From: an uncultured virus (IMG/VR IMGVR_UViG_3300001528_000811)
Taxonomy: Duplodnaviria; Heunggongvirae; Uroviricota; Caudoviricetes
Length of the DNA: 64,000 nt
IMG/VR virus record: IMGVR_UViG_3300001528_000811
Strand: one strand, 5' to 3'
The position numbers were made by a program, and so were the translations under genes. This document shows positions 9,102 to 41,758 of the stretch, piece by piece (positions within the stretch are counted from its first letter, which is position 1; each line of letters begins with the position of its first letter). Below the pieces are notes generated by a model. The model searched no databases. It was not told the origin of the DNA and worked only from the letters and a program-made list of their open reading frames with translations.

Positions 9102-9160
9102 AATATTTATATTAAAAAATATTAAAAAGATTATTTAATATTTTTTAATATAAATATTAA
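9100..9160. repeat. Perfect 27-bp inverted repeat, 7-nt loop
   Basis: TTAATATTTATATTAAAAAATATTAAA (9100-9126) / reverse complement at 9134-9160. Confidence 0.9.
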
Positions 9161-9227
9161 TAAAATAAATATATAAACTATAATATTTAATATAATAATT
9201 ATATATAATTTTGAAAGGAGTGATATT

Positions 9228-9442: not shown

Positions 9443-9607
9443 ATGAAAATATTAAATTCAAAAACTAGTGAGATAAAAAATAAAATAATTGAAAAAATAT
9501 TGAAGAAAAGGTCAGAAGATTTGTATGATATAAAGACAGGACCTAGTTTAAACTTCTCATTAGAGCAAAATATTACTGGAGGATTTAATAATGGAAATAT
9601 TAGATAA
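9443..9607 (+). CDS. 54-aa hypothetical protein (missing from ORF track)
   Basis: AAGGGAG SD, MKILNSKTSEIKNKIIEKILKKRSEDLYDIK...; overlaps start of PilT-like gene. Confidence 0.5.
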   Translation: MKILNSKTSEIKNKIIEKILKKRSEDLYDIKTGPSLNFSLEQNITGGFNNGNIR

Positions 9608-10478
9608 ACTTCCAGAAATATTTAAAAATCTTTTGGATTTGCAATTGAAGGAAGGAGCTTCAGATTTACATCTTCAGAGTAATTCTGAAGCTTTTTTAAC
9701 TAAAGAGGGACAAATAGTTTCAACAGGAATATTTATAGATGAAAACACTTTATGGAAAGTTAAAGAAGTTTTAACATCAAATACAGTATATTATGGTTTA
9801 TTGATTGATAATAAATCTGTAGATTTTTCATTTGTTTATAATAGTGATTTTAGATTTAGAATATCTATTGTAGAAAGTTTTAGAGGTTTAAAATTTTCTA
9901 TAAGAAATAATAATTATAGAATTAGAACTTTTAAAGAGTTAGGTTTTAATCCTACAGTTTGGGAAAAACCTTTAAGACAAGATGGCGGTTTAATTTTAAT
10001 AGCCGGTTCAACAGGAAGTGGAAAAACCACAACAATGGCTTCTGCAATAAACGAATTAATTAAAAAAAAGAAATGTATAATAACTCTTGAAGACCCTGTA
10101 GAATATATTTATGATACAAATGAAACTTCAGTAACACAGAGAGAATTATATATAAATTTTAATAATTACGCAACAGCAATAAGAGATGCAATGCGTATGA
10201 AACCTGATGCAATAATAGTTAATGAATTACGAGATAAATCTACAATTGATGCAACTTTAGAAGCAGCAGAAACAGGGCATCTTGTAATAGGAACTGTTCA
10301 TACTAAAAATTTAGAGGCAATAGAAAATCGTTTAATTTTAACATTTCCTTCAGATGAGCAGCAATTAAAAAGAGAAATTTTGAAGGAAACTTTAATTTAT
10401 AAAGTTCATCAAAAATTAGTCTTTGATGAATTAACACAAAAATTAAATTTAATTTATACAGATAAAATATTTATTTAA
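9591..10478 (+). CDS. pilT: PilT/PilU-family traffic ATPase, C-terminally short
   Basis: GASDLHL, Walker A GSTGSGKTT, Asp box ITLEDPVEY, Walker B region PDAIIVNELRD, His box AAETGHLVIGTVHT. Confidence 0.85.
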   Translation: MEILDKLPEIFKNLLDLQLKEGASDLHLQSNSEAFLTKEGQIVSTGIFIDENTLWKVKEVLTSNTVYYGLLIDNKSVDFSFVYNSDFRFRISIVESFRGLKFSIRNNNYRIRTFKELGFNPTVWEKPLRQDGGLILIAGSTGSGKTTTMASAINELIKKKKCIITLEDPVEYIYDTNETSVTQRELYINFNNYATAIRDAMRMKPDAIIVNELRDKSTIDATLEAAETGHLVIGTVHTKNLEAIENRLILTFPSDEQQLKREILKETLIYKVHQKLVFDELTQKLNLIYTDKIFI

Positions 10479-12587: not shown

Positions 12588-12590
12588 TTT

Positions 12591-12660
12591 ATTTAATATT
12601 TAATATTTAATAATTAATATTTAATAATTAATATTTAATAATTAATATTTAATAAATATT
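12591..12660. repeat. 14-bp tandem repeat (TAATATTTAATAAT x3) containing the intergenic motif
   Basis: Direct reading of 12595-12655. Confidence 0.75.
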
Positions 12661-14094: not shown

Positions 14095-14814
14095 GTGTAT
14101 GAATGTTATGTATGTAGAGATAAAGGACTAGTAGATGGCTGTCCAAAATGTGGTAAAGTATTTAATATTTTTAAACCTGAAATAGATAAAAATTTATTAG
14201 AAACTACAAAAGTATTTATACCAGAATTTTATAGAAATAGAGTTTGGAATAAATATCTTGCAATGGTAGATAAATCAGATACTAGTTCATATTTTGATTT
14301 CTTTAATATGTTGGAATTATTGCATAATGGTATATTAGAGGGAAAGCAATTGCATAATTCAGCAATTGTGTCATCTCCTGCAACTTTTAGTAAAACGACT
14401 TGGGTTTATTCATGTTTGCAAAATTTAATATCTCAAAATAAAAAAGTTGCACCTTATATAAGTACATCTGAATATTTGAAATTATATAATATGGATGTTA
14501 ACAAACCTTATATGAATTTTAAATATTTAGAACACACCATATATGATTATAACACAGCAGATATTCTATTTGTAGAAATACCAAATGATGAGGCTTATTT
14601 ATATGCATATGAGACAATATTAAAGATAATAAATTTAAGAGCTAAGTTTGATAAACCAACAGTTTTTGTCACAAATGTTCCTGTAAATAAAATTGTTTCT
14701 CGAGATAGTTCTGGAACTTTAATAAAATATTTAACTAATACTGGAGAAGGAAATCCTTATAAATATCTTGCTTCTATACAGTATGAGGAATTGAAAGAAG
14801 GTGTACATGAGTGA
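14095..14814 (+). CDS. DnaC/IstB-like helicase-loader homolog with N-terminal Zn finger and degenerate Walker motifs
   Basis: CYVC...CPKC; SSPATFSKTT in P-loop position; ADILFVEI; INLRAKFDKPTVFVTN. Confidence 0.6.
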   Translation: MYECYVCRDKGLVDGCPKCGKVFNIFKPEIDKNLLETTKVFIPEFYRNRVWNKYLAMVDKSDTSSYFDFFNMLELLHNGILEGKQLHNSAIVSSPATFSKTTWVYSCLQNLISQNKKVAPYISTSEYLKLYNMDVNKPYMNFKYLEHTIYDYNTADILFVEIPNDEAYLYAYETILKIINLRAKFDKPTVFVTNVPVNKIVSRDSSGTLIKYLTNTGEGNPYKYLASIQYEELKEGVHE

Positions 14815-15485
14815 TAGAAGTATCAAATGGTATTACAGTAGCCTTATCGTATATAAAATACGAAACAGAGATGAATTTTAAAGAAGCATCTAAAATTGTA
14901 GAAGAAACAATGAAAGATGGTGATTTAAGAGAAAATGAACCTTATCAAAAAGCTAAAGAAAATTTAATGATGGAAATTACAAAAAGAGATAGATTTAATA
15001 AACAGACTTATAATTTAATAGGAGTGAATGAATATATAAATGATATAAATTCAAATACTATAAAAAAGCATACTTGGTATGATATTTATATTTTAACAAA
15101 TTTAATGATATCTCAAATAAAAAGTAATAAAGAACTAAATATGTTTTGTAGTATCTTTTTTACAGATGAACAAGTTCCTGAAAATATAAAAAAAATATTT
15201 GGTTCTAAATTAATGGAAAATAAAGTAGTTATAAAATTAACAACTTGTTTTGGTGTAAATAGCAATGAGTTTATAAATTATGGATATAATTCTTACGAGT
15301 CAGAATTATTTAATAACATTAAGACAAAATCTAAATATGAAGTTTTTGATTTACTTTTTGATGAAGGAGATAATTATTACTATATAACAGATACATCAAA
15401 AGATTTTAATATTAGATTAAAAGAAATGTTTGATAGTTTAGATAGTAAATATTTTCCAATAAGATTGGATAGTGATAAAGAATAA
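14811..15485 (+). CDS. greA: GreA-like transcript cleavage factor (N-terminal coiled coil) with unrelated C-terminus
   Basis: GDLRENEPYQKAKE matches Gre signature GDLSENAEYxxAKE, both acidic residues kept. Confidence 0.65.
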   Translation: MIEVSNGITVALSYIKYETEMNFKEASKIVEETMKDGDLRENEPYQKAKENLMMEITKRDRFNKQTYNLIGVNEYINDINSNTIKKHTWYDIYILTNLMISQIKSNKELNMFCSIFFTDEQVPENIKKIFGSKLMENKVVIKLTTCFGVNSNEFINYGYNSYESELFNNIKTKSKYEVFDLLFDEGDNYYYITDTSKDFNIRLKEMFDSLDSKYFPIRLDSDKE

Positions 15486-18663: not shown

Positions 18664-18817
18664 TAATATATTAAATATTTTAATATTTAATATTTAAATT
18701 TTATAAATATAGTATATAAAAATATTTAATATTTTTAATGTTATTTATTTTAGTAATATTATAAATTTATTATTAAATATAATTTTATTAATATCAAATA
18801 TAAGTGAGGTTATTCTG

Positions 18818-23245: not shown

Positions 23246-23347
23246 ATCTCTTAAATATTTAATATTTTATAAAGAATAATCTAAAACTTATATTATTTAA
23301 TAAATATTCAATATTTTATATATTATAAATAGATAGGGGAGTTATAT

Positions 23348-24265
23348 ATGAAGATATATCAGGTTTTTAGAGAAGAGCTTGATAGTAGTTATATAATTTA
23401 TTATCACAATGGAGAAGTGTATAAAAGACCTTGGTTTAAAGATTGGAATTTAAAAAGTAAAAAAATATCTTTAGGTATAGACCAATCTTCAACTTGTACA
23501 GGACTTTATTTAGAAGGAGAAAGTGACAAAATACTGATAGAGTTCCCAAGAAATTTAACAGATGTGCAAACTTATAAAAAAGCTTTAATAAATGAATTAG
23601 ATAGTTTAATTTTTAATAGTGAAGTAGAACATTTTATCTATGAAATTCATAACCATATTTCCACTAAAGACTCACCATTATATAAAATAACAGAAGAGCT
23701 TAGAGAATATTCTAAAGCAGGAACATTCAATAATTCAAAAGTCAAAGGGGTACTTCCAAGTGTTTGGAGAAAAGGATTTTTAAATAAAGAAGAATATAAA
23801 GGCGAGTACACTAGAGATAAAGTTAAAGAAGCTTGTTTAAGACAAACGCTAAAGGAAAATCCAAATTTTGAAAAGTATATAAAATATTCTCATAAAGATT
23901 TAGATAGTTATGAGGCTTATGGTATTTTAAAAGGATATATGACTTTAAATTATAATATAGAAGGTGTCAGACTAGTCAATACTACAATGAGTGTTTTAAA
24001 TAGTAGAAATTTTAAATATACCATAAAGGCAGTAAAATATGAAAATTTATCTAAAGAATTATCACAATTTAATATTCCGATTTTATTGAGTAATAATGAA
24101 ATAAATTTAAAAGAAAGCTGTAATAGAGTTTTAGATGAATATACAGAATGTTTAATATTATTTGATAATAGTCATCCGGAAGTACCTAGATATATTTTGG
24201 AAACAGGTACTTATTGTGATGAAGATTTAATATATATTGTGCATACAAAAAAAGGAGGTTTTTAA
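23348..24265 (+). CDS. RuvC-like Holliday junction resolvase-fold nuclease
   Basis: LGIDQSSTCTG, FIYE, VLPSVWRK, DLDSYEAYGI. Confidence 0.75.
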   Translation: MKIYQVFREELDSSYIIYYHNGEVYKRPWFKDWNLKSKKISLGIDQSSTCTGLYLEGESDKILIEFPRNLTDVQTYKKALINELDSLIFNSEVEHFIYEIHNHISTKDSPLYKITEELREYSKAGTFNNSKVKGVLPSVWRKGFLNKEEYKGEYTRDKVKEACLRQTLKENPNFEKYIKYSHKDLDSYEAYGILKGYMTLNYNIEGVRLVNTTMSVLNSRNFKYTIKAVKYENLSKELSQFNIPILLSNNEINLKESCNRVLDEYTECLILFDNSHPEVPRYILETGTYCDEDLIYIVHTKKGGF

Positions 24266-24267
24266 TA

Positions 24268-25485
24268 TTGGAATTAATGTACAAAAAAGCTTTAGAAGAA
24301 GCTTCTTCTTTCGAACTTTATATTTTAGCAAGATATGCACATAAATTAGGAATGGATATGTTAACAGATGAGGAATATGATACATTGGAAGAACGTATAA
24401 AAACATTTAGTCCTTATCATCCTTTACTGAATGAAAACTGGGAGGAAGATGAAGAGCCAACAGAATTAGCTTTAAAGTATGGGATAGTTTTTCCAGATTT
24501 AAAAAAATCAATGTCTGAACGATTAATAAAATATTCAAGACATTTATCTTATCAACATGCAATATCTATTAAACCTGTTAGAGATTGGAATGAAGCTCAT
24601 TGCTGGTTTGATGAGCATATAGGTCAGGAGTTAATTTTTATGTTAAAAATTGATGGAATTCATTTAACAACTTTAACTGATAGTAATACTGGAAATGTAT
24701 GTTGTGTATCTTCAAGAGCAAGAGATGCTAGACAGATGTTAGATTATACTGATGCTTTTATTAAGTTAAAGAACAATTTTAATTATAAAAAAAAAGACAA
24801 AAATAAAAATTTTAATATAACTCATTTTGAATGTTATTGTACAAAAGAGTCATTATCAAAGTTAAGAAATATTCAAGGAGCTTTTTATAAAACTGAAAAA
24901 TCAGCAGCTCTAGGTTTAATGACACGAGGTATCAATGAATTTCAAATTCCTTATGTAAAATTATATGCTTTAAGACCGGAGCCAATATTTAATACTTTAA
25001 GTAGAGATTTAACTTATTTAAATTTAAAGTGTAATTTAAATATACCTCCATTTATAGTGAAAACTTACAATGGATTAAACGATAATAACTTTAATGGTTT
25101 TATAGAGGAAATACAAGAATTATTAATATGTAAAGCAAAAGAATTAAAAATACCTTATGATGGGATAGTAGTGCAAATTAATAATAATGAAGATTTTTAT
25201 AGAGCAGAAATAGATAATAAATATTCATCTGGTAATATAGCAATAAAATTTGGATATAATACAGCTAAGAAATTTGTAGTCAAAGTAAAAGATATAAAAT
25301 TTATAAATTCTAAAGAACGTCTTATTCCAAAAATTATATTATATCCAACTGTATCTCCAGATGGAAAAAAAATTACAGAAATATCAGGATATAATGTAAA
25401 AACATTAATAGCAAATAAAATATTACCTGAAAGTTATGTTTCTATAAAATGGCAGTCAGATGCTATACCTATATTAGATATTTAA
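24268..25485 (+). CDS. ligA: NAD-dependent DNA ligase, N-terminal part (Ia + adenylation + OB)
   Basis: LTDEEYDTL (domain Ia), KIDG, YDGIVVQIN, IAIKF; ends after OB fold. Confidence 0.8.
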   Translation: MELMYKKALEEASSFELYILARYAHKLGMDMLTDEEYDTLEERIKTFSPYHPLLNENWEEDEEPTELALKYGIVFPDLKKSMSERLIKYSRHLSYQHAISIKPVRDWNEAHCWFDEHIGQELIFMLKIDGIHLTTLTDSNTGNVCCVSSRARDARQMLDYTDAFIKLKNNFNYKKKDKNKNFNITHFECYCTKESLSKLRNIQGAFYKTEKSAALGLMTRGINEFQIPYVKLYALRPEPIFNTLSRDLTYLNLKCNLNIPPFIVKTYNGLNDNNFNGFIEEIQELLICKAKELKIPYDGIVVQINNNEDFYRAEIDNKYSSGNIAIKFGYNTAKKFVVKVKDIKFINSKERLIPKIILYPTVSPDGKKITEISGYNVKTLIANKILPESYVSIKWQSDAIPILDI

Positions 25486-25503
25486 TAATAAGAGGTGATT
25501 TAA

Positions 25504-25725
25504 GTGAATACATTGTTGCATAAAAATGTAAAAATAATAGAAGGTATTATTGTAGATGATAGTAAACAAGAAAAATCTTTAAATAATTATTTTTTTAATA
25601 ATAAAGATTTAATAGATGTTTGTGTAGATAATAAAATAATACGTATAAAAAAAATAGAAAAATATTCTAAAAATAAAGAAAATATGAATGATGAAGAATT
25701 AACAAATATTTTTAATAAAGGGTGA
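25504..25725 (+). CDS. Hypothetical protein
   Basis: 73-aa ORF, GAGGTG SD, C-terminal ELTNIFNKG. Confidence 0.6.
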   Translation: MNTLLHKNVKIIEGIIVDDSKQEKSLNNYFFNNKDLIDVCVDNKIIRIKKIEKYSKNKENMNDEELTNIFNKG

Positions 25726-26456
25726 TACATTTGATTTATTATATAAAAAGAGAAAGGGATAATATCATAAAAGAACAGAAGGAACATTTAAATTTAGATA
25801 AAGAGATATTTGTAATTGAAAAAGAAATTAAAAATAATGAATTAGATATTGTTTGTAAAGAGATTTTAAACAGAGAACCTGAATTAATGGAATTTAATTT
25901 AGTGATAAATCTATCTCCTAATATGACATCTGTAAGAATTAAAAATTTTAAGAAATTAATTCATAACAAACCTATACAACAGAAAAATTTAATAATTTCA
26001 AAAAATATTTCTGAATTAAAGCAACAGATGAAAGAAAATTTAGAAAAAGATGTAAAATATTATTCTGTATTAAAATATTCTATATATACTGAATTAGAGT
26101 CTAGCATATATACATCTTTATTTTTTAATCCTAAAACAATTTTAAGTTTAATAGATTTTAATTGCTCAGAAAATGGTATTGTATATTGGGAGCTTATAAA
26201 AACATTAAATATACAAACTTCAGACTTTGAGAATAAAGAAAGTGCTATGCTAATATATCTACAAATATTTCTATACTTTTTTAATAAAGAAAAAAATGGA
26301 AAAAATTTAACAATAAAAGATATAAAAGAAATACAAAGAGTTATGCGAGAGGTAGATGATTATTTTTCTGAAATAGTACCTTTCGGGAAAAAAACTTTAA
26401 AGTTATTAAGAGAAGATATAACTGTAAATAAAATAGCTCATATTTATATACATTAA
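25722..26456 (+). CDS. Hypothetical protein
   Basis: 244-aa ORF, GTGA overlap. Confidence 0.7.
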   Translation: MIHLIYYIKRERDNIIKEQKEHLNLDKEIFVIEKEIKNNELDIVCKEILNREPELMEFNLVINLSPNMTSVRIKNFKKLIHNKPIQQKNLIISKNISELKQQMKENLEKDVKYYSVLKYSIYTELESSIYTSLFFNPKTILSLIDFNCSENGIVYWELIKTLNIQTSDFENKESAMLIYLQIFLYFFNKEKNGKNLTIKDIKEIQRVMREVDDYFSEIVPFGKKTLKLLREDITVNKIAHIYIH

Positions 26457-26478: not shown

Positions 26479-29400
26479 ATGGATAAATTATATAATATGT
26501 TTTTAAATGATTTATTAGAACCTAAAATAATAGAAGAATTTTTTCCAGTACCAAATAGAATAGATAGATTTATTATTTTAAGAGAAATTTATGAGAAATC
26601 ATATGTTTGTGATAAAATAGATTTTACATTAAATGATATAAATACAAATATAAATTTAAGAGTAACAATACAATTGGGAATATGTCCAAATAAAAAGGAT
26701 ACTTCATCTGTGGAATTTACTACTGTAGAACAATTAATAGTTACAGATTTTTTAAAAGTTCCTTCTTTAACTTCAAGAGGTATTTTAATGTCAGGACAGT
26801 TATACTTTACAAAATATTGTAATGAAATTGTAAAGGGTATAACATATCATGAAAATTCTGTAACAGAAGAGGAAAAAAATCTGATACAATTAAATTTAAG
26901 GTCCGATAATTATAGGAATATAAGTTTTAAAGTTTCTGATGATAAAATAATTTGTAAAAGAAAAAATAAATATACAAGTAAAGAAATGTCATTTGATTTT
27001 TATAAATTATTGAGAATATTTAATGAAAATGAAGCAGACAATTTTTTATCTGAGAATTCAGCAACGAGTATTTCAAATTATGATAAAAGTTCGATTTCTT
27101 ATGAAGATTTAATACAAGAATTTTTATCTTGGATAGGTAAAGATTATCAAACTTTAGATAATATAGTAAATAATACAAGAAAAGAGCAATATGTAAAAAA
27201 TGGTTTATATTTTAAGTTTGAGGAAGAAACTTTGAAAAATATGAGACATTTTTTAAGTTTTGAAAATAGAATTAAAGGTGCAGTTATCTGGGAAGATATA
27301 AATACAAAGATAGAAGAAGTGAATACTGAAATAATAAAAATTAATTTTAATAAAGGAAAAATCTTAAAATCTGAAGATTTAATATTATTAGATAAGTGCA
27401 AAGATATAACATCATTAATTGTAAAAATAAATAATAAAATATTCAGAGTTATTAAAAAACCAATAACAAATACTTTAGATATAAATATGTTAGCCAATAT
27501 ATTTAATATTATGGATACTTTAAGATATATAAAAAATATAGAAGCTAATGAGTCAAACTTTCTGTATCAAAGAGCTAGCACTTATTATTCTGTAATGATG
27601 AAATTCGTAGATGATAATGTATCAGAATATTCAAAAAAATTAAATAAGCATATTTATGATTGTGTAAAAAATTGCTATAATAGTTTAGAAAATTATCAAA
27701 AAAAAGTTATTGATGAAAATGTTGTATTTAATTGCTTATATGAAAATATGAGTAATCATCTTTTTTTAAAAGAAAGGATGCAAAAAGAATATAAATATCC
27801 TATAAAGTTTTTTGATAAATATAAAGATAATCCTGATATGTATAAATTAATATCTTTAGCAGATAATAGAAATTCTAGAATAGCATATGCAAATAAAAAT
27901 ATATTTATAAATCCATCAAAAGAAGTTTCTATAAAAGCTAAAGAAATTCAAGCGACACATATGTTTTTTTTATGTTCTATATCCGCTCCTGAGTCAGATA
28001 AAGCCGGAGCTACAAAGCATTTAACAGTAGGAACTTTTGTAGATAAATATGGAGTTTTTAGAAATTCTTTTGTTAATTTAATAACAGGAGAAACAGAATA
28101 TTTATCAGCTTTAGACATATATACAAAAAAAGTAGCTGTTGAAGATTTTGATAATAAGGTATCGGCAAAAGTTTTATATAGAGGAGAAATAATTGAAACA
28201 GAAGTATCTAAAATAGAGTATAAACCTAAGAGTTGGTCACAGATTAGTTCTATAAATATAGCATCTGGTATATGTGGAACTTTTAATAAATCACGTAGAC
28301 AATTAATGGAAAATAATGAATTAAATCAGACTTTAACTATATTAGGTGGAGAACCAACATCTTTAAATACCGGATTAGACTCGAAGTATTTACAAGATTA
28401 TTGCATTACTGTAAAAGATATTTTATTATATAATGAAATGGATTTAACAGTTCTTCCAGAGAATGTAGTTTTAATATTTAAATCTATAAAGGATATAACA
28501 AAATCGAATATAGATATAAAAAATAAACAAATTATAGAATATATATTTGAAATTAAAGAATTAATTGAAAATGAAAATATAGATTTAGATATGAATAATA
28601 TTATTGAAGTTGATACAAATGAAAAAGAATACTTGGAGGAACAATTTAATCCTATAAAAGGAAAAAGAATTTTAAAATATCCAATTATGAAAAATTATTT
28701 ACAAGCACAACAAAATATTACTTTAAAAATGGTAAATAAAAATATTTTTCATTTAAATGATATTGTATTTATACCTGAAGATGCAGAATATATGGAAGAA
28801 GAGCAGACACAAGTTTTTGAGGATATAGATACGAGTTCTAAACATTTAAGATTATCTATTGGCAAAAATGTGACAATAGCTTATATGAATTATGAAGGAT
28901 ATTGTTATGAAGATGGTATGGTTATAAGAGAAGGATTAGCTAATTCTTTAGGATTATCACATGTATATACAAAAACAGAAAGCTATGAATTAGAATTAAA
29001 TGAAGTATTTATAGCAAAAGAACCTTTAGGAACGAAAGTATACCCTGGGATGATTTTAGGTTCAATATTTAATAATGAAGGTGTGTTAATAAAAAATATA
29101 ATTGTTCCGAGAGACAAAGAAGGTATATTTAGTTTTTATGAATTAAAAAATAATATATTAACATTAACTATAACCGGTATTTATTTTGTTGAAGTAAGTT
29201 GTAAATTTGCAGGTTTCCACGGAAATAAATGTACAGTTTGTGCAATAATTCCAGATGATAAAATGCCTTTGGACCCTGACACTTTAATTCCTGTAGATAT
29301 TTGTTTAAATCCTTTGGGAATTACAACACGTGATAACATGGGGCAATTAATAGAAGGCAATTTAAATTTAATAGGTGAAAAAGATGCTATTGCATATAAA

Positions 29401-32400
29401 ATATCTGTAGATAGTTTAAATAATGCAAAAGCATTAGATACTAATAAAATTTTAATAGACGGTAGAACAGGAACACCTTTTAGAACAAAAGTGAATGTTA
29501 TAAGAAGTTCTTTTATACAACTAGACCATCATGCAAAAGATAAATTAAGAACATCTTTATTACCAACTGCTATTGATTTAGTATCAAATCAAATTAAAAA
29601 AGGAGATAATAACGAAGGTGGTTGTGGTATATCTGAGTTAACAACTAATGCTTTATTAGCTTCTGGAGCAAATCAAACTTTAGATTATTTAAAAATGATT
29701 GGAGAGGGAGCAGGAAATAAGACTGTCGGAAGTTTTGCTGAATATTTAATAAAAAGTGCTAAATATGAAATGAAGGATATTTTAAAGAGTTCAAATACAA
29801 ATAGATTTCAGAAGTATCTTGTATATTTGTATGGTTCAGCAGGATTAATGTATAATTATAATAATTCAACAGCTTCAATAGAAGTTTTAACTAATGATAG
29901 TATAGAAGCAACTTTTAAAAATATAAATTCAGATAAAGCATTTAATAATGAAGTTTATTTAACTAGCACGAGTACAAATAATTTAATAAATGTATATTTA
30001 GGTATAGACTCTGAAAAGTATATGAAAGATATTGTAAGAATAGAAGTACCTGGAGTTTGCTGGTTAAATCCGGCAATAATATACACACAAATATTTAAAG
30101 ATATAAATAAAAATTATGGGATATCTCCACAAGATTTAATAGATGAAAATATTTATATTAGATTAGAAGAAATGTCATCTGAAAATGAGGAAGTTAATTT
30201 TGATATACAGATTTTAAAAAAAGGAGAAAATGCAATACCGGAAGATTTTATAACAGGAGCATATGCTTTAATGCAGATGATAAATAAATTAGATACTGAT
30301 GCATATAAATATTTAATCAATAATTTTGTTTTAATCCCTAGAGAATTTAGAAAGAAAAATAAAGAGAAATATGCAGAAGCGGATATTAATAAAGCTTATA
30401 GTTATTTATTAAAAAGATTGAGAGATGTTTTAATATATTTTAAAGAAACATCAAATATCAATAACTCTTTAGAAGAAGGATTTAATAATATTATAAATAC
30501 AAATAATAAAGAAGCTATAAAAGCTTATAATTTATTTTATAAAGAATATTTTAATTATTTTACTTCTAAAACAAGAAAATCTGTGAATGAAGATTTTTTA
30601 AAAGTAAGACCTTATTTAGATTATTTATCAGATAAAGAAATAGGTGTATATCGTTCAATGCTACTTGCTAAAAGAGTAGCAAGTTCAATGGGTTCTGTAA
30701 TTGTCGGTGACCCATATATAAAATTAGATGAAGTTGGTGTACCTTTTTTATCTTTAGTAGATTTATATAGGTATGAAATATATTACAATTTATTTTCATC
30801 TGAAGCATTATTTAGTGATAAATATGAACCTTTACGTGATTTTTTAAAACCTTATATTGATATAATTAAATATGTAAAAGATTTAGAAGGTCATAATGTA
30901 GGTTATGATATAGTAAAAACTACAGATTTATTTGATATATTTTGTAATAGATTAAAAAGTATAGTTTATAGAAATATTTATTATAAAGATGATATTTATA
31001 ATACACAATTTAAATCATATACAGAACTTGAAAAAATTAGAAATTTATTAAAAGATTTTGTACAAAAAATTTGTAATACTAAAATAAATATTTTAATAAG
31101 AGAACCTGTTTTGCATAGATTTAATGTGGAAGGATTTAAACCTGTTATTGTCGAGGGCTATGCTTTACATATTAATACTTTAATATGTAAAACTTATAAT
31201 GCAGATTTTGATGGAGATAATATGCAAAATATTTCAATATTGCCTGAAAATGTTGTGAATGAAGTAAAAGATAAACTAACACCATATCAGATGTTTTTTG
31301 ATGATAGTGGTAATTATAATTATCCTTTAGTTCAAGATGTTCTATATGGTTTATGTGTTGGAATAGGTTGTTTAAATATTCCAAATGAAAAATCAATAGA
31401 ATATGAAAACTTTAATATTTTAGATTTTAAAAATCATAAATATAATTTGAATGATTTAATAAATTCAGATATAAAAACAACAGTAGGAAAATATTATTTC
31501 TTAGAAAAAATATCAGATAAATTTAATATACCTCGAAAAGAATTGTTTAAAATTTTAGAAGAAAATTTCAAAGATATAAATAAAATAATTACTTTAATAG
31601 AACAAAAAGTTAATAATAAAGTAGAATTATTTAATGATTTAAAATTAATATCTTTTGAATTTATGATGCAAGAACCTGTAACTTTATCTTTAAAAGATAT
31701 GATAGATATATCAAATGTTTGGGAAGCGATAAAAGAAAAATCTACAGAAAAAGAAAATAATTTATTGTATTCTACGATATTATTAAATCATCACTTTTTT
31801 AATTTTAAAGATATATCAAGAGAAGATAAATTATCAGAAATACAAAATGATATATCAGATATTCAATATAAATATCTTGAAAATACTTTAAAACAAAGCG
31901 AATATAAAGAAAGATTGAAAGATAACAATTTTATGAAAATTGTAAATACTGGAGCTAAAGGAAAATTAATAACATTGCATGATTTAATTATAGGTGGTTC
32001 ACAGCCTGTAGGTATAAGGGGGAATAATTCTCCGGCAAGAATATCTACACCAACTTTAAGTGGTTTAAAGCCTTATGAAGTATTTCAATCAGGTTATACT
32101 TCTTTAACTTCTCAGTATTCAACAAATGAAAGTACAAAAGATGCAGGAGAATTATCAAGAAGTTTTTCAACAGGTTTAAGTAGAAAAATTATGGATGATG
32201 ATTGTGGAGCTAAACCTACATTACATGATTTATATATGGAAATTCCTTTCAGTAATTTTACTTCTTTAAAATTTAAAGAATATGAAGGAAAATTATTTGA
32301 ACCTAATATTATTGTAAAAGATGTTGTTTCAAAAAATAAAATTACTAATTTATCTCAAGGAATGGTTTTTGGCAGCACTTTAATATCTTCTAATTTGAAA

Positions 32401-33696
32401 CCTATATTTGAAGATTTAAGACTAGATAAAATATATGCAAAAGGTATAAAGGAACCTTTTAATTTTATATGGGAGATTTCAGATTTATCTTACCAATTAT
32501 ATGAAGGACGTTATGGTTATGATTTAAATTTTGATAATACTGTAAATAAAGATAAAGAAGTACTATTAACAAAAGAAATAATAAAAAAATATTTTGATGC
32601 AGGATATAAACAAATATATGTAAGAACATTATATGATTGTGTACACAATCAAGGTATATGTTCCAAATGTTTCGGTGTAACTTTAAATTATAAAGAAAAT
32701 CCGAATACAATGAAATTTTATAAGATAAATACAGAAATAGGTAAGATAATTGCAACACAAATTAGTCAGAGATTAACACAAGCTAAAATGGATAAAAAGA
32801 ATAAATCTATACATGAAGAAGAAGTTGATACAATACAACAATTTAATATACTTTTAAATTTGAGTGACAAAAGTGTAAAAACACCAACTTCTTTAAGAGC
32901 ACCTGAGAGATATTTTGTGGGTTTTGAAAATAAGATAACAGGAGAAATTAATCTATGTAATTCTAAATATAAAGTTAATGATTTGTTATTAGACAAACAA
33001 ACAAGACCACCTGTAGGTTTTAAAGTTACTAATGGTAATGAGAATTTTAAACGTTTAAGTAAATTAGTAAATATAGATAAATTTAGATATTTATTATTAC
33101 TTGAATATTATAATCTATACAAAGAAAATAATTTAATAATAGACCCACGCTGTTTCGAGTTATTAGTTGCTATACAAACTTCTATGGTAAGAATATTGAA
33201 GAACAATATAGTAGATATAAATGGAAATCATACAGAAAAAAAATTCTATGTAAATAGTTATAGACCATTAAGTCATGCTAAAAAATATATAGATAAAAAT
33301 CAATTAGAAGTTGAAATCGAACCTTTATCACTTTCTAAAGTTTTAGCTTACAGGTCACCTTTAACAGCTTTAGGTTTTTCTCATATTTCTTTTATGTTAA
33401 AAAATATAATAAGTAATAAAGTAACTATTGATTTAAGAGATAATATCGAATTATTGAATGGGGGATTATTTTTAACAAAATTTAATACTCCTACGTATGA
33501 ACAGAAAAGATATAAAAAATACAAAGATGAATTAATGAAGGGTGATAAGTATAATAAAACGAAAGATATAGAAAAGTCAGATAGAGATTTAACGAGTACA
33601 GTGGAAGAGAATTCAGATATTATTAAAAACGTAAAAGAAACCAAGATAGATGTAAATTTAGGAGTAAATGAAGAAGAAACTTCTTTATTTAATTAA
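26479..33696 (+). CDS. rpoBC: Fused beta-beta' two-barrel DNA-directed RNA polymerase, highly divergent
   Basis: beta: CSISAPESDKAG, GYCYEDG, KFAGFHGNK, LNPLGITTRDNMGQ, DGRTG, LDHHAKDK; beta': LLAKRV, REPVLHR, NADFDGD (31198-31218), TGAKG, TKDAGELSR, VRTLYDC...CSKCFG; single uninterrupted frame. Confidence 0.95.
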   Translation: MDKLYNMFLNDLLEPKIIEEFFPVPNRIDRFIILREIYEKSYVCDKIDFTLNDINTNINLRVTIQLGICPNKKDTSSVEFTTVEQLIVTDFLKVPSLTSRGILMSGQLYFTKYCNEIVKGITYHENSVTEEEKNLIQLNLRSDNYRNISFKVSDDKIICKRKNKYTSKEMSFDFYKLLRIFNENEADNFLSENSATSISNYDKSSISYEDLIQEFLSWIGKDYQTLDNIVNNTRKEQYVKNGLYFKFEEETLKNMRHFLSFENRIKGAVIWEDINTKIEEVNTEIIKINFNKGKILKSEDLILLDKCKDITSLIVKINNKIFRVIKKPITNTLDINMLANIFNIMDTLRYIKNIEANESNFLYQRASTYYSVMMKFVDDNVSEYSKKLNKHIYDCVKNCYNSLENYQKKVIDENVVFNCLYENMSNHLFLKERMQKEYKYPIKFFDKYKDNPDMYKLISLADNRNSRIAYANKNIFINPSKEVSIKAKEIQATHMFFLCSISAPESDKAGATKHLTVGTFVDKYGVFRNSFVNLITGETEYLSALDIYTKKVAVEDFDNKVSAKVLYRGEIIETEVSKIEYKPKSWSQISSINIASGICGTFNKSRRQLMENNELNQTLTILGGEPTSLNTGLDSKYLQDYCITVKDILLYNEMDLTVLPENVVLIFKSIKDITKSNIDIKNKQIIEYIFEIKELIENENIDLDMNNIIEVDTNEKEYLEEQFNPIKGKRILKYPIMKNYLQAQQNITLKMVNKNIFHLNDIVFIPEDAEYMEEEQTQVFEDIDTSSKHLRLSIGKNVTIAYMNYEGYCYEDGMVIREGLANSLGLSHVYTKTESYELELNEVFIAKEPLGTKVYPGMILGSIFNNEGVLIKNIIVPRDKEGIFSFYELKNNILTLTITGIYFVEVSCKFAGFHGNKCTVCAIIPDDKMPLDPDTLIPVDICLNPLGITTRDNMGQLIEGNLNLIGEKDAIAYKISVDSLNNAKALDTNKILIDGRTGTPFRTKVNVIRSSFIQLDHHAKDKLRTSLLPTAIDLVSNQIKKGDNNEGGCGISELTTNALLASGANQTLDYLKMIGEGAGNKTVGSFAEYLIKSAKYEMKDILKSSNTNRFQKYLVYLYGSAGLMYNYNNSTASIEVLTNDSIEATFKNINSDKAFNNEVYLTSTSTNNLINVYLGIDSEKYMKDIVRIEVPGVCWLNPAIIYTQIFKDINKNYGISPQDLIDENIYIRLEEMSSENEEVNFDIQILKKGENAIPEDFITGAYALMQMINKLDTDAYKYLINNFVLIPREFRKKNKEKYAEADINKAYSYLLKRLRDVLIYFKETSNINNSLEEGFNNIINTNNKEAIKAYNLFYKEYFNYFTSKTRKSVNEDFLKVRPYLDYLSDKEIGVYRSMLLAKRVASSMGSVIVGDPYIKLDEVGVPFLSLVDLYRYEIYYNLFSSEALFSDKYEPLRDFLKPYIDIIKYVKDLEGHNVGYDIVKTTDLFDIFCNRLKSIVYRNIYYKDDIYNTQFKSYTELEKIRNLLKDFVQKICNTKINILIREPVLHRFNVEGFKPVIVEGYALHINTLICKTYNADFDGDNMQNISILPENVVNEVKDKLTPYQMFFDDSGNYNYPLVQDVLYGLCVGIGCLNIPNEKSIEYENFNILDFKNHKYNLNDLINSDIKTTVGKYYFLEKISDKFNIPRKELFKILEENFKDINKIITLIEQKVNNKVELFNDLKLISFEFMMQEPVTLSLKDMIDISNVWEAIKEKSTEKENNLLYSTILLNHHFFNFKDISREDKLSEIQNDISDIQYKYLENTLKQSEYKERLKDNNFMKIVNTGAKGKLITLHDLIIGGSQPVGIRGNNSPARISTPTLSGLKPYEVFQSGYTSLTSQYSTNESTKDAGELSRSFSTGLSRKIMDDDCGAKPTLHDLYMEIPFSNFTSLKFKEYEGKLFEPNIIVKDVVSKNKITNLSQGMVFGSTLISSNLKPIFEDLRLDKIYAKGIKEPFNFIWEISDLSYQLYEGRYGYDLNFDNTVNKDKEVLLTKEIIKKYFDAGYKQIYVRTLYDCVHNQGICSKCFGVTLNYKENPNTMKFYKINTEIGKIIATQISQRLTQAKMDKKNKSIHEEEVDTIQQFNILLNLSDKSVKTPTSLRAPERYFVGFENKITGEINLCNSKYKVNDLLLDKQTRPPVGFKVTNGNENFKRLSKLVNIDKFRYLLLLEYYNLYKENNLIIDPRCFELLVAIQTSMVRILKNNIVDINGNHTEKKFYVNSYRPLSHAKKYIDKNQLEVEIEPLSLSKVLAYRSPLTALGFSHISFMLKNIISNKVTIDLRDNIELLNGGLFLTKFNTPTYEQKRYKKYKDELMKGDKYNKTKDIEKSDRDLTSTVEENSDIIKNVKETKIDVNLGVNEEETSLFN

Positions 33697-36936: not shown

Positions 36937-39900
36937 ATGAGATATATTGGAACATTTGTAAGAGGTGATAGTCATTATTATTTTATTTATTCATATAGTA
37001 CAACCAAAACAAGTTGGGTATTATTTAATAATTCTATTAAAACAGGACTATCTACAAAAATTTTAACTTTAGATAAGGTTATAAGAGAACCTCAAAAAAT
37101 AGAAAAAGAATTTATTGAAGGAGCAATTGTATTATCAACAAAAAATCTTTTAGCATATGGTAATACATTTTTAATAAATAATTTAATAGAAATTTTTAAT
37201 AAGAAAGATACTTTACAAAATAAAGATGTTTTATCTTATGAGGAATTTGACAATAAAATTATTAAAATAGCAGAAAAAAAATCCCCCATGATAACAGTAA
37301 AAAAGAAAGAAACATTATTCAAAACAAAAATTTTAAAAAAACTTGAAAATGAGGATATAACTGTAGTAAAAGAAGTTATAGAGGAGTTAAATGTAAAATT
37401 TGGAAATACAGTTTTAATATTAGAATATAATAATATAGAAAAAGGTAGTTTTGTACCAAAGGTAGAATTTAATGATGTAGAAGATGAATTTTCAGATAAT
37501 GGTGTTGAATATTCTAAAGATTTAATATCGTCAACAAAGGCAAAATCTTTATCTTATTTAAGATATACTAGAGATTTATCTTTTTATTATGGTCCTGATG
37601 GTACAACAAAAAAACATTACAGACTTATAAATTCTTCAAAAGAATTACAGCGAATATTGGAAACTGAAGTGAAAGATAAAGTAAAATTGTGGGCAGTCGA
37701 TATAGAGTCAACGGGTTTAATGATGTATAAACCTAATGAAATTAATAAGGGACAACTTGATCGTACAGTTTCAATAATGGTTTCTTGGAAAAAAGATGAA
37801 GCTTTGTTTATACCAATAGATATGGTTTATGTAAAAAATATAGATAAAGATTGGGTTAATATTATGAAACCTTATCTGGAAAGTATACCAGCCGTTGGTG
37901 CAAATATAAGTTTTGATGCAAGAGGTCTTTGGTCAGAATATAATATAGAATTAAATATTGAGCATGATGTTTTGCAATTAGCCTTTGTAATAAATTGTTT
38001 TGCAGTTAAAAATCATAATAATCTCAAAGAGCATGAACATAAATTTTTAAATGTTGATACTTTAACTTTAAAGGATATATTTGGAACTTCAAAACTTGCA
38101 GGATTATTTAGATATTTACCAGAAGAATTAGCTTTAATTTATGCTTGTCCCGATGTTGATATGTGTTTAGAATTATTCTATATTTTAATAGAAAGATTAC
38201 CACCATCTTGTTATAAATCATATAAATTAGATATGGATACTATAAAAAATTTATATAAATTAGATGCAATAGGTAATGCTGTAGATGTCGAATTAGCTGA
38301 AAAATACAGAGATGCAAATAATAAAGATAGAGATATAATAAAAAATTTAATTTATCATATTGTGGGACAACAATTAGCTTTAGTGAATAAAGTTAGTGAA
38401 TTAAAGTCTAAATATGATTTTAATAATGAGGAACAGTTAAAAAAAATAGAAGAAGAATTAGAACAATTTTTAATTAGTCCGAATTATACTAAAGCATCCA
38501 AAGAATTTAATTTAGGTTCTGATGATTTAGGAAAGTATATGTTTGATTTATTAAAATATCCTGTTTATGCTGTACAAGAAAAAACTCATAAACCTGCAGT
38601 AAATACAACAGTTTTGAAAAAATTAATGGAACAAACTTTTAATAGTGAGGAAGAGCAAGAACAAGCCTCCATATTAAGAAGTAAAGGCAGTTCAGGTTAT
38701 TTAAAAGAAGATATAGTATCTGCTATATCAGATGTTATAGGAAGTGAGGAAGTTTTAATAAAAGCAGATACTTTTAATAAAATGAAATATCCATTAGCAT
38801 ATTTAATAACAGAATATCGTTTAAGAGAAAAAAGAGATAATACATTTTTTCATCAGATTTGTGATTTAAATTTAGGCGGGCTTTATTACACTTCAACAAA
38901 ATCAGCTCATGCTGAAACTGCTCGTTTAATAAATGTAATACAAGTTCTTCAGTCATATATGAAGAAACTAATAGTTCCTTATAATAAAGACTATTATCAT
39001 TTAATATTTGATTTTTCTCAAATTGAATATAGAGTAATGACAGGAGTTTCAGGTTTAATAGCTTTAAAGAAAGCCTTAGATAATCCAAGAGCAGATTTCC
39101 ATAAAGAGTGTGGTGCACTTTTAAAATCTAAGAAAGCTCATCAGGTTACACATGATGAAAGAAAACAATTAAAAGGTTTAAATTTTGGTATTCCTTATGG
39201 CTTAGGTTTAAGAAGTTTATGTGTAAGTTTATATGGTTCTGTAACAGAAGAAAATATATTTAAGACACAAGACATTCTTAATAAATGGAAAACTTCTTTT
39301 GCAAAAATATGGGATATGTTAGAGTCTGGAAGAAAAAAAGCTTTAGATAAAGGTTACGCAGAAAGTATAACAAAAAGACGTCGACCCTTTATAAAAGACT
39401 ATCCTTTTAATAATGAAGAAGAAGAAAAAAGTTTAGTTGAAGAATGGTATACTAATTTAACAGCATCTCAGAAAGCTTTAATAAGAAGGGAGAGTGGAAA
39501 CTATTTAATACAGGAAACTGCAGCACATATATTTAAAATAGCTTTTAATAATTTTCGTAAAAGATTAAAAGAAGAAGGATTGGAAGATAAAGTTTTAACA
39601 ACAGCTTTAATTCATGATGAAATGGTTTCTTCTGTTCATAAATCAGTAAACCCTTATTATTTATATAGAATAATATATGAAGAGTGTATGATGATTATTA
39701 AAGGACATCCTAGATATTATGCGGGAATATCTATAGTTGATAATTGGTATGAAGGTAAAGCAGATGAATATGAAGCACCTATAGAATTTGTAGAATATAT
39801 ACTAAAAAGTGATAAAAGTAAAAATAAATACGTTGATAATTCTGATATGATTTCTCCAAAAGAATTAGTATTTAAAGATATAAAAAATTTTATGCAACAG

Positions 39901-40734
39901 CTTTTAAAATCGGAGTATGAAAAACTTGGAATAGATTTTAATAGTGATACATTAGATATAAATACTATTCTTGAAAATACAGAAGATTATTTTATACTTG
40001 ATAAAATTTCTGTTTATTGGCCAATAGAAAAGAAATTTAAAAAAATTCAAAATGATAAAGAAAAAACATACAATAATACAAAATTTATAAGAAGCTTCGA
40101 AAGATTTGCTTTAGAGTTAAATATCAAGAACGAATATAGTATAATATATCCAAAGGATTATCCTTTAGGAATATATGGCAAGATTACTAAAGAAAAAAGA
40201 GTTTTATATAATGAGGATAATATAATAACTTTAATACAAAATACTACAGATATTAAACAAGAAGGAAATTTAATAACTGATTTAAATTTAAATTTAGATA
40301 CAGAAATGAATTTTGATTTGGATTTAAATTTAAATGAAAATGTGTTATTCGAAGATATAAATGCTTCTTTAAGTGAATTAAGTTTATATGACTCTTTCAG
40401 TTATGAAGGTTCTGCAGTTTATTATTTTAATGATATAAATAAAATGGAAATAAATGATATTGAAATAAATAGAGATAAATATATAAATACAAATTTTAAT
40501 AATACTGATAAAACAATACAATTTTTGAAAGATGAAATAATAATAAATAATAATGATATAAAAGTTAATGGTTTAGAAGCTATAAAGGAATATTTAATAA
40601 AATACAAAAGTAACAAACTTGGAAGCTTACCGGTTTATATAAGAAATGGTGATAAAGTTGAAACTTTAGGATTTAATGTTAAAGGTTATAATCCAGATGA
40701 AATATTACAAATAGTAAAAAAATATTCACTTTAA
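36937..40734 (+). CDS. polA: Family A DNA polymerase with 3'-5' exonuclease and long N- and C-terminal extensions (likely replicase)
   Basis: ExoI VDIESTG, ExoII NISFD, ExoIII YACPD; motif A DFSQIEYR, B RKQLKGLNFGIPYG, C IHDE; no recognisable 5'-3' exonuclease. Confidence 0.92.
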   Translation: MRYIGTFVRGDSHYYFIYSYSTTKTSWVLFNNSIKTGLSTKILTLDKVIREPQKIEKEFIEGAIVLSTKNLLAYGNTFLINNLIEIFNKKDTLQNKDVLSYEEFDNKIIKIAEKKSPMITVKKKETLFKTKILKKLENEDITVVKEVIEELNVKFGNTVLILEYNNIEKGSFVPKVEFNDVEDEFSDNGVEYSKDLISSTKAKSLSYLRYTRDLSFYYGPDGTTKKHYRLINSSKELQRILETEVKDKVKLWAVDIESTGLMMYKPNEINKGQLDRTVSIMVSWKKDEALFIPIDMVYVKNIDKDWVNIMKPYLESIPAVGANISFDARGLWSEYNIELNIEHDVLQLAFVINCFAVKNHNNLKEHEHKFLNVDTLTLKDIFGTSKLAGLFRYLPEELALIYACPDVDMCLELFYILIERLPPSCYKSYKLDMDTIKNLYKLDAIGNAVDVELAEKYRDANNKDRDIIKNLIYHIVGQQLALVNKVSELKSKYDFNNEEQLKKIEEELEQFLISPNYTKASKEFNLGSDDLGKYMFDLLKYPVYAVQEKTHKPAVNTTVLKKLMEQTFNSEEEQEQASILRSKGSSGYLKEDIVSAISDVIGSEEVLIKADTFNKMKYPLAYLITEYRLREKRDNTFFHQICDLNLGGLYYTSTKSAHAETARLINVIQVLQSYMKKLIVPYNKDYYHLIFDFSQIEYRVMTGVSGLIALKKALDNPRADFHKECGALLKSKKAHQVTHDERKQLKGLNFGIPYGLGLRSLCVSLYGSVTEENIFKTQDILNKWKTSFAKIWDMLESGRKKALDKGYAESITKRRRPFIKDYPFNNEEEEKSLVEEWYTNLTASQKALIRRESGNYLIQETAAHIFKIAFNNFRKRLKEEGLEDKVLTTALIHDEMVSSVHKSVNPYYLYRIIYEECMMIIKGHPRYYAGISIVDNWYEGKADEYEAPIEFVEYILKSDKSKNKYVDNSDMISPKELVFKDIKNFMQQLLKSEYEKLGIDFNSDTLDINTILENTEDYFILDKISVYWPIEKKFKKIQNDKEKTYNNTKFIRSFERFALELNIKNEYSIIYPKDYPLGIYGKITKEKRVLYNEDNIITLIQNTTDIKQEGNLITDLNLNLDTEMNFDLDLNLNENVLFEDINASLSELSLYDSFSYEGSAVYYFNDINKMEINDIEINRDKYINTNFNNTDKTIQFLKDEIIINNNDIKVNGLEAIKEYLIKYKSNKLGSLPVYIRNGDKVETLGFNVKGYNPDEILQIVKKYSL

Positions 40735-40837
40735 TGAGAAAATTATTTTTTATGCTTCTAATAATATTTAATATTTAAAAACTATAAAAAATTTGTTAAA
40801 ATTAGTATACATTTTTGAAGAAAGGAGATAAATTATA

Positions 40838-41758
40838 ATGACTATAAAAGAAGCAAAAAATAAGAAAATAATTCCAGAAGAATTTAATTTTATTCCAGAC
40901 ATATGTTCTGTATGTGGAAGTGATTTAAATATAAATGAAAATTTAACTATTATGGAATGTTCAAATATCTATTGTTTAGAAAGCGTAATATATCGAGCTG
41001 AACAAATGTTAAAGAATTTTAATATTGTAGGAGTAGGCACTCAGTTTTGTAGGAAATTTTTTAATTTATTTCCAAGTAATCATCATACAACTATTTTGTT
41101 AGCATCTTTAGATAAATTAATATCTGCAGGTGGTGAAGCTCAAGGAACGTCAATATATAAACAAATATTAAATATAGTACGACAAGTTTGGACATTTGAT
41201 GACTTAGTTTCTAAATTAGCGTTACCTAATTTAAATCAAGAAGCTTATAAAATATTTAAGGGTATATATGGTTGGAAAACGTTTAAGTTAGCAGTAGAAC
41301 AAGTTTCAGGTAATATGGAAAATTATTTATTTAATTTAGAAGGTTTCGGAGAAATAAAATCAAAATCTATAGCAAAAACTTTTGAATTATTTGATATCGA
41401 TTTGATAATAGTGGATATGTTATTTAAAAAATATTTAGGAAAAAGAAAAAGTTATAATATTTGTATTACAGGTTTCACAAATTATTACAACATGACAAAG
41501 ACAGAATATATAGATTATTTAAAAAAGATATCAAATGGAATAATTAGTATAGTACAGAAATCTAGTTTTACAAGCGATTGTGATTATTTAATAGCTTCTA
41601 ATAAATATGCAAATTTACCTTCAAATATGTTGAGCATTAAGCATAATCAAGCTTTAGCTCGCGAAAGAAGAACAGGGCAAATGTGTATATTAACCGCAGA
41701 AGAATTTGTTAATTTAATATTAAAAGAAAGGGAGCAATTAAATGGAGAAACAAACTGA
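40838..41758 (+). CDS. ligA: NAD-dependent DNA ligase, C-terminal part (Zn finger + HhH + BRCT)
   Basis: PDICSVCGS...ECSNIYC, NIVGVG, LEGFGEIKSKSI, BRCT-like ICITG...SFTSDCDYLIA. Confidence 0.8.
   Translation: MTIKEAKNKKIIPEEFNFIPDICSVCGSDLNINENLTIMECSNIYCLESVIYRAEQMLKNFNIVGVGTQFCRKFFNLFPSNHHTTILLASLDKLISAGGEAQGTSIYKQILNIVRQVWTFDDLVSKLALPNLNQEAYKIFKGIYGWKTFKLAVEQVSGNMENYLFNLEGFGEIKSKSIAKTFELFDIDLIIVDMLFKKYLGKRKSYNICITGFTNYYNMTKTEYIDYLKKISNGIISIVQKSSFTSDCDYLIASNKYANLPSNMLSIKHNQALARERRTGQMCILTAEEFVNLILKEREQLNGETN

Follow-up and report, generated by a model that had tools for sequence, protein, structure and literature searches.

The window analysed here, a stretch of 64,000 nucleotides from an uncultured virus (IMG/VR record IMGVR_UViG_3300001528_000811), contains one very long open reading frame (ORF) at positions 26479..33696 in which an earlier note, made from the letters alone, had recognized both large subunits of bacterial RNA polymerase (RNAP), beta and beta-prime. 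The locus raises the question of whether this is one genuine protein and, if so, whether it is a cellular enzyme, a known kind of phage enzyme or something else. We find that the product, P0001, is collinear with beta followed by beta-prime, and that it belongs to a clade of exclusively fused metagenomic proteins, here called clade X, that is separate from the cellular and phage-encoded enzymes in our trees. We infer from the sequence, and think it probable, that P0001 is an active, self-contained, one-chain RNAP core carried by an extrachromosomal element and transcribing the genes of that element.

A single frame for beta and beta-prime

Under translation table 11, positions 26479..33696 of the + strand form a single ORF of 2,405 codons. 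Its own frame contains only the terminal stop, the remaining five frames contain 83 to 349 stops each, and with the base composition of the ORF (43% A, 34% T) an open run of 2,405 codons would arise with a probability of about 1e-116. The beta motifs had been described as running in frame into a beta-prime start and on to NADFDGD without a stop; the peptides do lie at those positions within one uninterrupted ORF, with FQKYLVYLYGSAG at residues 1110-1122 (nucleotide 29806) and TASIEVLTNDSIE beginning at residue 1131 (nucleotide 29869). The main parts of the chain are as follows.

26479..29868, + strand: beta-like module, residues 1-1130, assigned by profile alignment and structural match
29869..33693, + strand: beta-prime-like module, residues 1131-2405, assigned by profile alignment and structural match
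29203..29232, + strand: beta barrel motif KFAGFHGNKC, residues 909-918, in which 26 clade-X sequences share K909, G912, G915 and K917 without exception
31198..31218, + strand: beta-prime catalytic loop NADFDGD, residues 1574-1580, invariant in clade X

Family and structure searches recognize both modules. In Pfam, P0001 matches Rpb2_6 of beta at residues 905-1025 (E 2e-20) and Rpb1_2 of beta-prime at residues 1525-1595 (E 8.8e-19), with weaker matches to Rpb2_3 and Rpb1_4 that fall under their cut-offs. Against solved structures, it matches 173 distinct chains at E <= 0.01, headed by a bacterial beta (8i23_C, E 4.5e-26) and a beta-prime (7l7b_D, E 3.6e-19). With a profile built from an alignment of 26 clade-X sequences (A3), the same two chains are matched at E 3.5e-183 and E 6e-198, respectively. 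The A3 profile aligns with Bacillota beta over residues ~31-685 (profile positions 8-604) and 754-1197 (profile positions 727-1123), and with Bacillota beta-prime over residues 124-807 and 825-1152. Because both subunits are aligned in this way, P0001 is collinear with all of beta and then with nearly all of beta-prime. Identity to the cellular subunits is only ~25%; thus, the earlier description of an enzyme collinear with the bacterial one yet very divergent holds on both counts.

The catalytic motifs are in place. The two-barrel core features are present, namely a beta barrel with two lysines (K909 and K917) and a beta-prime barrel with the aspartate triad, and the spacings between catalytic landmarks (35, 36-37, 48-49 and 62 residues) are the same as in cellular enzymes. 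Besides the motifs listed above, R951, N953, R1541, P1543, N1574 and D1576-D1580 are invariant among the 26 clade-X sequences, and a set of cysteines (C1909, C2054, C2061 and C2064) is nearly so.

An AlphaFold2 model of residues 760-1910, computed from a 42-row alignment, reached a mean predicted local distance difference test score (pLDDT) of 79.3 and a predicted template modelling score of 0.79. In a structural comparison made with VIA-align as a second look at Foldseek matches, model residues 5-371 (residues 764-1130 of P0001) superimpose on E. coli beta from 517 to 1342, its last residue (Z 19.3, root-mean-square deviation (rmsd) 3.8, 348 aligned), and model residues 372-1145 (residues 1131-1904) superimpose on E. 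coli beta-prime 19-808 (Z 19.4, rmsd 5.3, 636 aligned). Since the modelled halves match the end of beta and then beta-prime from residue 19, the join at nucleotides 29868/29869 is seamless and without a linker, and the boundary that had been proposed near 29870 was correctly placed. We treat the model as supportive rather than independent evidence, because the predictor has seen RNAP structures. A fold search in BFVD matched only separate beta-like or beta-prime-like viral proteins.

The case for a genuine fusion rests on comparison among independent assemblies. A word-index protein search with P0001, in which 7,998 candidates were scored and 47 hits returned, found full-length fused relatives in other assemblies: P0002 and P0003 at 48% identity and 100% coverage, and P0004 at 26% identity. 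Residues flanking the join are kept in P0001-P0003 (K1112, Y1113, Y1116-Y1118, G1122, I1134 and L1137-N1139). An exhaustive profile-free search with residues 780-1950 as query gave 5,394 matches at E <= 0.001; 130 of the best 150 are at least 2,000 residues long, and 144 of these 150 carry both catalytic cores in one chain. That an assembly or sequencing error joined two genes is hardly credible against these data, as the fused frame recurs in P0002, P0195, P0003, P0004 and the 144 library hits, the residues spanning the join are conserved, and the structural match passes from the last residue of beta directly to residue 19 of beta-prime. What speaks for such an error is one relative in the cluster of P0048, at least 90% identical, whose entry consists of separate pieces with 1,812 and 699 residues (P0197 and P0198) from one 18,920-bp contig. 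This copy is either frameshifted or a truly split member of clade X, and we take it as an exception or an error.

Clade X among cellular and phage-encoded enzymes

To place P0001, the beta and beta-prime cores were excised with home-made profiles, the blocks were aligned and trimmed, and their columns were joined. FastTree trees of 285 and 325 units and a quick IQ-TREE tree (LG+G4, 80 rows by 772 columns) agree on its placement and are read as unrooted. P0001 sits in clade X, which has 110 members in the 325-unit tree, including 98 of the 150 best library hits, and which receives a Shimodaira-Hasegawa-like approximate likelihood ratio test (SH-aLRT) value of 100 for its 27 IQ-TREE rows. Across the clade-X branch lie 20 cellular rows, all of them split genes, together with a clade of fused IMG/VR proteins (clade Y) and a group of split phage genes, which is mReC. 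The proposal that the enzyme represents a distinct lineage of element-encoded RNAP is borne out by this separation from cellular, mReC (see below) and clade-Y rows, and the phylogenetic check that had been suggested puts P0001 outside the chromosomal rpoB/rpoC clade. Within clade X, P0001-P0003 have a long stem (0.98 changes per column), lie in a 10-row subclade with an SH-aLRT of 99, and show a skewed amino-acid make-up, so that the depth of the P0001 branch should not be over-read.

Relatives were sought in further collections. No IMG/VR locus among those fetched falls inside clade X in the 285- and 325-unit trees. Searches by tblastn of GenBank phages (with P0001, P0060 and P0112) and of PLSDB (with P0001 and P0060) yielded no record that reached 80% query coverage; the top hits, with identities of 24-30%, were rpoB/rpoC genes of cellular type. 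Scans of JGI metagenomes with alignment A2 and P0200 found no relatives, nor did scans of IMG/VR with P0001 or P0060 alone; IMG/VR scans with alignments A1 and A3 gave distant polymerases only, and a GTDB scan gave split cellular genes only, in both cases among the matches listed. Relatives of the polymerase, among them P0195, P0048, P0199, P0051 and P0060, lie on contigs of 131-195 kb; one cluster is represented by three assemblies of 156-168 kb, and other contigs are as long as 313 and 480 kb.

Fusions of beta and beta-prime also occur in cells. The cellular RpoBC fusions described by NF007172 and NF011417, which we take to be the Helicobacter and Wolbachia types, likewise place beta ahead of beta-prime within a single chain and share its catalytic motifs. 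P0001 differs from them in lying outside the cellular clade, in having no chromosomal context, in its trimmed flap and in lacking the N-terminal zinc motif of beta-prime; it is also ~450 residues shorter than these models, which span 2,890 and 2,839 positions. Where the curated cut-offs are 5,372 bits (NF007172) and 4,632 bits (NF011417), it scores 139.3 and 106.2 bits, respectively. The existence of such fusions, the GC (guanine + cytosine) content of 21%, the occurrence of relatives on contigs of 130-480 kb and the presence of cell-like neighbours (Hsp70, PolA and an FtsK-like protein) could suggest that a symbiont with a tiny, AT-rich genome has this gene as its housekeeping rpoBC. We regard this as very unlikely, given that the 64 kb contain no tRNA, rRNA or other Rfam match, that no ribosomal protein family was found among the window ORFs, most of which belong to no family at all, that the 80 GTDB loci fetched include no fused or close locus, that both NCBIfam scores lie far below their cut-offs, and that clade X falls outside the cellular rows in the tree. 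An organelle or symbiont origin was dropped on the grounds of the missing tRNA, rRNA and ribosomal proteins, the NCBIfam scores and the tree.

Other mobile elements than the one with P0001 also carry fusions. Among IMG/VR loci fetched with A1, 64 of 80 carry a fused beta-beta-prime ORF (~2,030-2,470 residues, some cut by contig ends), compared with 0 of the 80 GTDB genome loci. Among cultured phages, Arash and D69 encode a protein in which beta continues into the front part of beta-prime. Vibrio phage D69 encodes proteins of 1,527 and 609 residues, and gp206 of Salmonella phage Arash (1,525 residues) is annotated as beta. Arash and D69 are not rows in our trees; they are tied to clade Y by tblastn with its fused ORF L004, for which coverage is 96-97% in the Vibrio phages D69, D148 and D181 and 70% in Arash. 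Like P0001, the Arash-like and clade-Y enzymes are element-encoded and of bacterial type, have beta fused to beta-prime or to its front, and come with no annotated alpha. Their junction is similarly compact, with 238-264 residues between landmarks as against 238 in P0001. However, clade Y is separate from clade X, lacks the clade-X insert described below (55 residues as against 69-136), and is found on recognized viral contigs, mostly of 50-67% GC.

Mass spectrometry of Arash virions places gp206 and gp216, the latter with the rest of beta-prime, among their most abundant proteins, beside the sigma factor gp10 (PMC10585845); of the enzymes in this group, virion association is shown for Arash only. 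P0001 might by analogy be an early polymerase that is packaged in a virion and injected with the DNA, and the abundance of gp206 and gp216 in Arash virions as well as the frequency of fused enzymes on viral contigs (64 of 80 loci) lend this some substance. We nevertheless judge it unlikely: P0001 belongs to a different clade from the Arash-like enzymes, and its gene stands among replication genes in a window with no recognizable virion gene.

Other element-encoded enzymes differ more strongly in layout. RNAPs of the jumbo-phage phiKZ/AR9 type work without alpha, omega or a recognizable sigma, as described in two reviews of the subject (PMC7598289, PMC7824862); they have beta and beta-prime split over four or five polypeptides, two or three for each subunit, in contrast to the one 2,405-residue chain found here, and the earlier statement that these phages split both subunits agrees with PMC7598289. 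The mReC group comprises uncultured phages with deep-branching beta and beta-prime homologs (Weinheimer and Aylward 2020, PMC7481178). In the trees, mReC forms its own clade (7 rows, SH-aLRT 93) and has two separate genes, unlike the fused P0001. YonO, gp66 of phi14:2, a crAss-like phage, and gp64/gp96 of P23-45 are also element-encoded and have both barrels in one polypeptide (PMC10770324); they are stripped down and barely recognizable by sequence, whereas P0001 is full-length, and we set them apart on the basis of their descriptions. For the crAss enzyme, PMC7481178 reports no match to beta and beta-prime models.

Two side observations concern the mReC contigs. A contig in the mReC supplement (PMC7481178), Ga0075113_1000011 (141,546 bp), is the same as IMG/VR locus L001, and its beta and beta-prime lengths appear to be swapped there relative to a check of the NADFDGD motif. 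In the mReC-like loci L001, L029 and L078, the NADFDGD-bearing gene is found upstream of the one for the beta-like protein, opposite to the arrangement in bacteria.

Lineage-specific features and the question of alpha

Three parts of the chain set P0001 or its clade apart.

28909..29220, + strand: shortened flap segment, E811 to H914, 103 residues, from landmark spacing; strands only in the model
30742..31101, + strand: clade-X-specific helical insert, P1422 to R1541, 119 residues, from landmark spacing and the model
33673..33693, + strand: acidic C-terminal tail EETSLFN, whose Phe is near-invariant in A3; 44 of 110 clade-X proteins end in Phe

The flap segment of P0001 is the shortest in clade X (median 128 residues) and compares with a median of 157 and a minimum of 155 in 69 cellular rows. 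In a full-length bacterial flap, the tip helix contacts region 4 of sigma; in the model of P0001, the flap region consists of strands without a tip helix, the tip being judged here from segment length and the model. Conversely, the segment from P1422 to R1541 is enlarged, with 69-136 residues in the 110 clade-X members as against 56 in all 69 cellular rows. The junction is compact: 238 residues separate the last beta landmark from the first beta-prime landmark, as opposed to ~350-390 for the C-terminus of Bacillota beta plus the N-terminus of beta-prime, and the first ~120 residues of Bacillota beta-prime have no counterpart in the A3 profile. Bacterial beta-prime carries an N-terminal zinc-binding motif of four cysteines. 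Because residues 1075-1300 of P0001 include a single cysteine (C1194), this motif is absent. The clamp coiled-coil, formed by long helices after residue 1291, is retained and well modelled. The acidic tail of clade X (...SLF or similar) resembles the kind of short peptide at the C-terminus by which SSB or clamp-binding proteins dock.

These features suggest how the enzyme might work. The active centre would be assembled from one chain, with K909 and K917 of the beta barrel facing the beta-prime barrel, where D1576, D1578 and D1580 would hold the magnesium ions, and the join would mimic the natural contact between the C-terminus of beta and the N-terminus of beta-prime in bacterial enzymes. The short flap, the absent zinc motif and the clade-specific insert suggest a mode of promoter recognition unlike that of host sigma-70. 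As the clamp coiled-coil is kept, an unrecognized specificity factor or a host sigma could dock there.

The same coiled-coil, together with the near-complete collinearity with beta and beta-prime and the lack of alpha, omega and sigma genes seen in the window, is what would be expected if the fused protein replaced beta and beta-prime only and assembled with the alpha dimer, omega and sigma of the host as a hybrid enzyme redirected to the element. Such a hybrid seems to us an improbable solution, in view of a flap whose 103 residues fall well short of the minimum of 155 in the 69 cellular rows, the missing beta-prime zinc motif and an identity of only ~25% to the cellular subunits; in addition, other phage multisubunit enzymes function without alpha and omega (PMC7598289). 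A self-contained core remains our preferred reading, and for this core we infer independence from alpha, although host alpha may still be used. The earlier suggestion that fusion lessens the dependence on alpha is a conjecture: the split RNAPs of jumbo phages also do without alpha and omega (PMC7598289), so that an enzyme free of alpha can be accounted for without invoking fusion.

The carrier element and its candidate transcription signals

The window has a GC content of 17-28%, ~21% overall, and yields 52 greedy ORF calls, nearly all on the + strand and separated by short gaps; it contains no tRNA and no Rfam match. Recognizable genes include a DnaB-like helicase, an SNF2-type helicase, a primase zinc finger, a UvdE-like nuclease, a DEDDh exonuclease, an Hsp70 and a NERD nuclease. 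A hydropathy count indicates few membrane proteins, the DNA polymerase and Hsp70 of the element gave only distant matches by tblastn, and a 434-residue ORF had no usable Atlas match. Further features of the element are listed here.

4579-8520: 1,313-residue protein with five Big_2 immunoglobulin-like repeats and a Cu_amine_oxidN1 domain, which may be an adhesin or fibre
8505-8806: array of tandem repeats resembling iterons (46 bp x 6.4 or 15 bp x 19.6), placed within the longest non-coding gap (8521-9227, 707 bp), which may be an origin or partition site
9591-10478: PilT/PilU-family ATPase (E 1.9e-64, under the family cut-off), followed by several ORFs without a family
24268-25485 and 40838-41758: ORFs matching separate parts of LigA (model positions 254-372 and 388-551)
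36937-40734 and 60771-62543: family-A DNA polymerase genes, of 1,265 residues and, shorter and weaker, of 590 residues
56235-58586: FtsK/SpoIIIE-like ATPase, 783 residues, with no predicted membrane segment

The NAD-dependent DNA ligase LigA looks as if it were split into two distant genes. The FtsK/SpoIIIE-like ATPase, lacking a membrane segment, is presumably unlike conjugative coupling proteins. Scans of the window ORFs with Pfam, PHROGs and NCBIfam, at loose thresholds too, found no capsid, portal, terminase, relaxase or VirB4, and family scans of 45-46 window ORFs, again including loose thresholds, found no alpha, omega, sigma or ribosomal protein. The earlier note was therefore right that no ribosomal protein genes flank the RNAP gene and that neither alpha nor omega is recognizable in the window, and its view of a mobile, non-chromosomal-looking element fits the replication genes, the absence of tRNA and Rfam matches from the window, and the position of the enzyme outside the cellular clade. 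From its gene content, the element may be either a large phage, with virion genes beyond the window, or a plasmid-like replicon.

Several features may bear on transcription.

14811..15485, + strand: 224-residue protein with a GreA/GreB N-terminal domain (PF03449, residues 16-53) and an unrelated C-terminal part
23255..23315, + strand: two copies of ATATTTAATATT, one exact and one with 1 mismatch, ahead of the RNAP unit
23348..26456, + strand: four packed, co-oriented ORFs before the RNAP gene, namely 305 residues, ligase-like 405 residues, 73 residues and an orphan of 244 residues
33712..33752, + strand: terminator-like 18-bp hairpin and U-run, 15 nucleotides past the RNAP stop codon (free energy -16.2 kcal/mol, z -4.9)

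From the first of the four ORFs through the RNAP gene, gaps measure 2-22 nucleotides or the ORFs overlap, and the five genes probably form one transcription unit. None of 200 shuffled sequences was as stable as the hairpin behind this unit, and further copies of ATATTTAATATT follow it ahead of the next gene. This 12-mer occurs 26 times in the window as against 1.6 expected, a number reached in none of 100 shuffles; 25 of the 26 copies are on the + strand, the one that carries the genes, and intergenic DNA, 3,310 bases in all, contains 22 copies in full. Sites include 43-54, 12596-12607, 18683-18694, 23255-23266, 40764-40775, 51485-51524, 56070-56206, 59435-59556 and 63289-63300. The 12-mer often forms part of tandem TATTTAA heptamers, repeated 9.3 times at 12590-12654 and 7 times at 51479-51527. 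It is a candidate promoter, operator or control element of the element; a scan of the window for promoters of the sigma-70 type showed no enrichment (139 found, 152 expected).

The Gre-like assignment of the 224-residue protein comes from PF03449, with E 1.9e-5 and 25.2 bits against a cut-off of 24.5. Its peptide GDLRENEPY resembles the acidic tip of Gre factors. A single-sequence fold of this protein was unusable (pLDDT 35). A word-index homolog search with it and a homolog search with the 244-residue ORF upstream of the RNAP gene each returned only the query itself.

The Gre-like factor, the ATATTTAATATT motif and the terminator-like hairpin would fit a private transcription system. In such a system, P0001 would most likely transcribe the genes of its element without relying on the core enzyme of the host, with ATATTTAATATT serving as promoter or control element, and the Gre-like factor might act through the secondary channel of the enzyme. 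Several points weigh against an active, self-contained core of this kind. The fold model may lean on solved RNAPs known to the predictor, and the trigger-loop region of P0001 has diverged strongly from the clade-X consensus. The long stem and skewed make-up of P0001-P0003 are compatible with fast evolution or with an altered function. No promoter-specificity factor was recognized in the window; the window covers 64 kb, the contig it comes from measures 79,393 bp or more, and the alpha and sigma negatives apply to those 64 kb. Finally, as the Gre-like and 244-residue proteins have no detectable relatives, they are tied to the enzyme by one genome.

Element-encoded RNAPs of cellular type and recurrent fusion in phages are known; what appears undescribed are the clade-X lineage, its structural peculiarities and its carrier elements. 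The literature searched, which largely excluded subscription journals, held no description of clade X or of any phage or plasmid that encodes beta and beta-prime as one full-length chain, and among GenBank phages, PLSDB and the IMG/VR loci fetched there was no clade-X representative. We raise only tentatively, and with more doubt than belief, the broader idea that RNAPs of bacterial type have a third major lineage in clade X, always fused, without alpha or omega, and bearing its own helical insert and acidic docking tail. It would reside on an unrecognized class of large AT-rich replicons, maybe not tailed phages, that virus catalogues have missed and that would have private transcription with their own polymerase, Gre-like factor and heptamer-repeat promoters.

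RNAPs of cellular type that are encoded by such elements serve to study the minimal needs for assembly, promoter finding and termination. If a full-length chain works without alpha and omega, it would offer a simple, expressible model and possibly an orthogonal transcription tool. The size of clade X, with 98 of the 150 best representatives, points to a common transcription strategy of large uncultured elements that is still undescribed. As regards the host, strong Shine-Dalgarno sequences precede the genes of the window, and their strength would fit a Bacillota-like bacterium.

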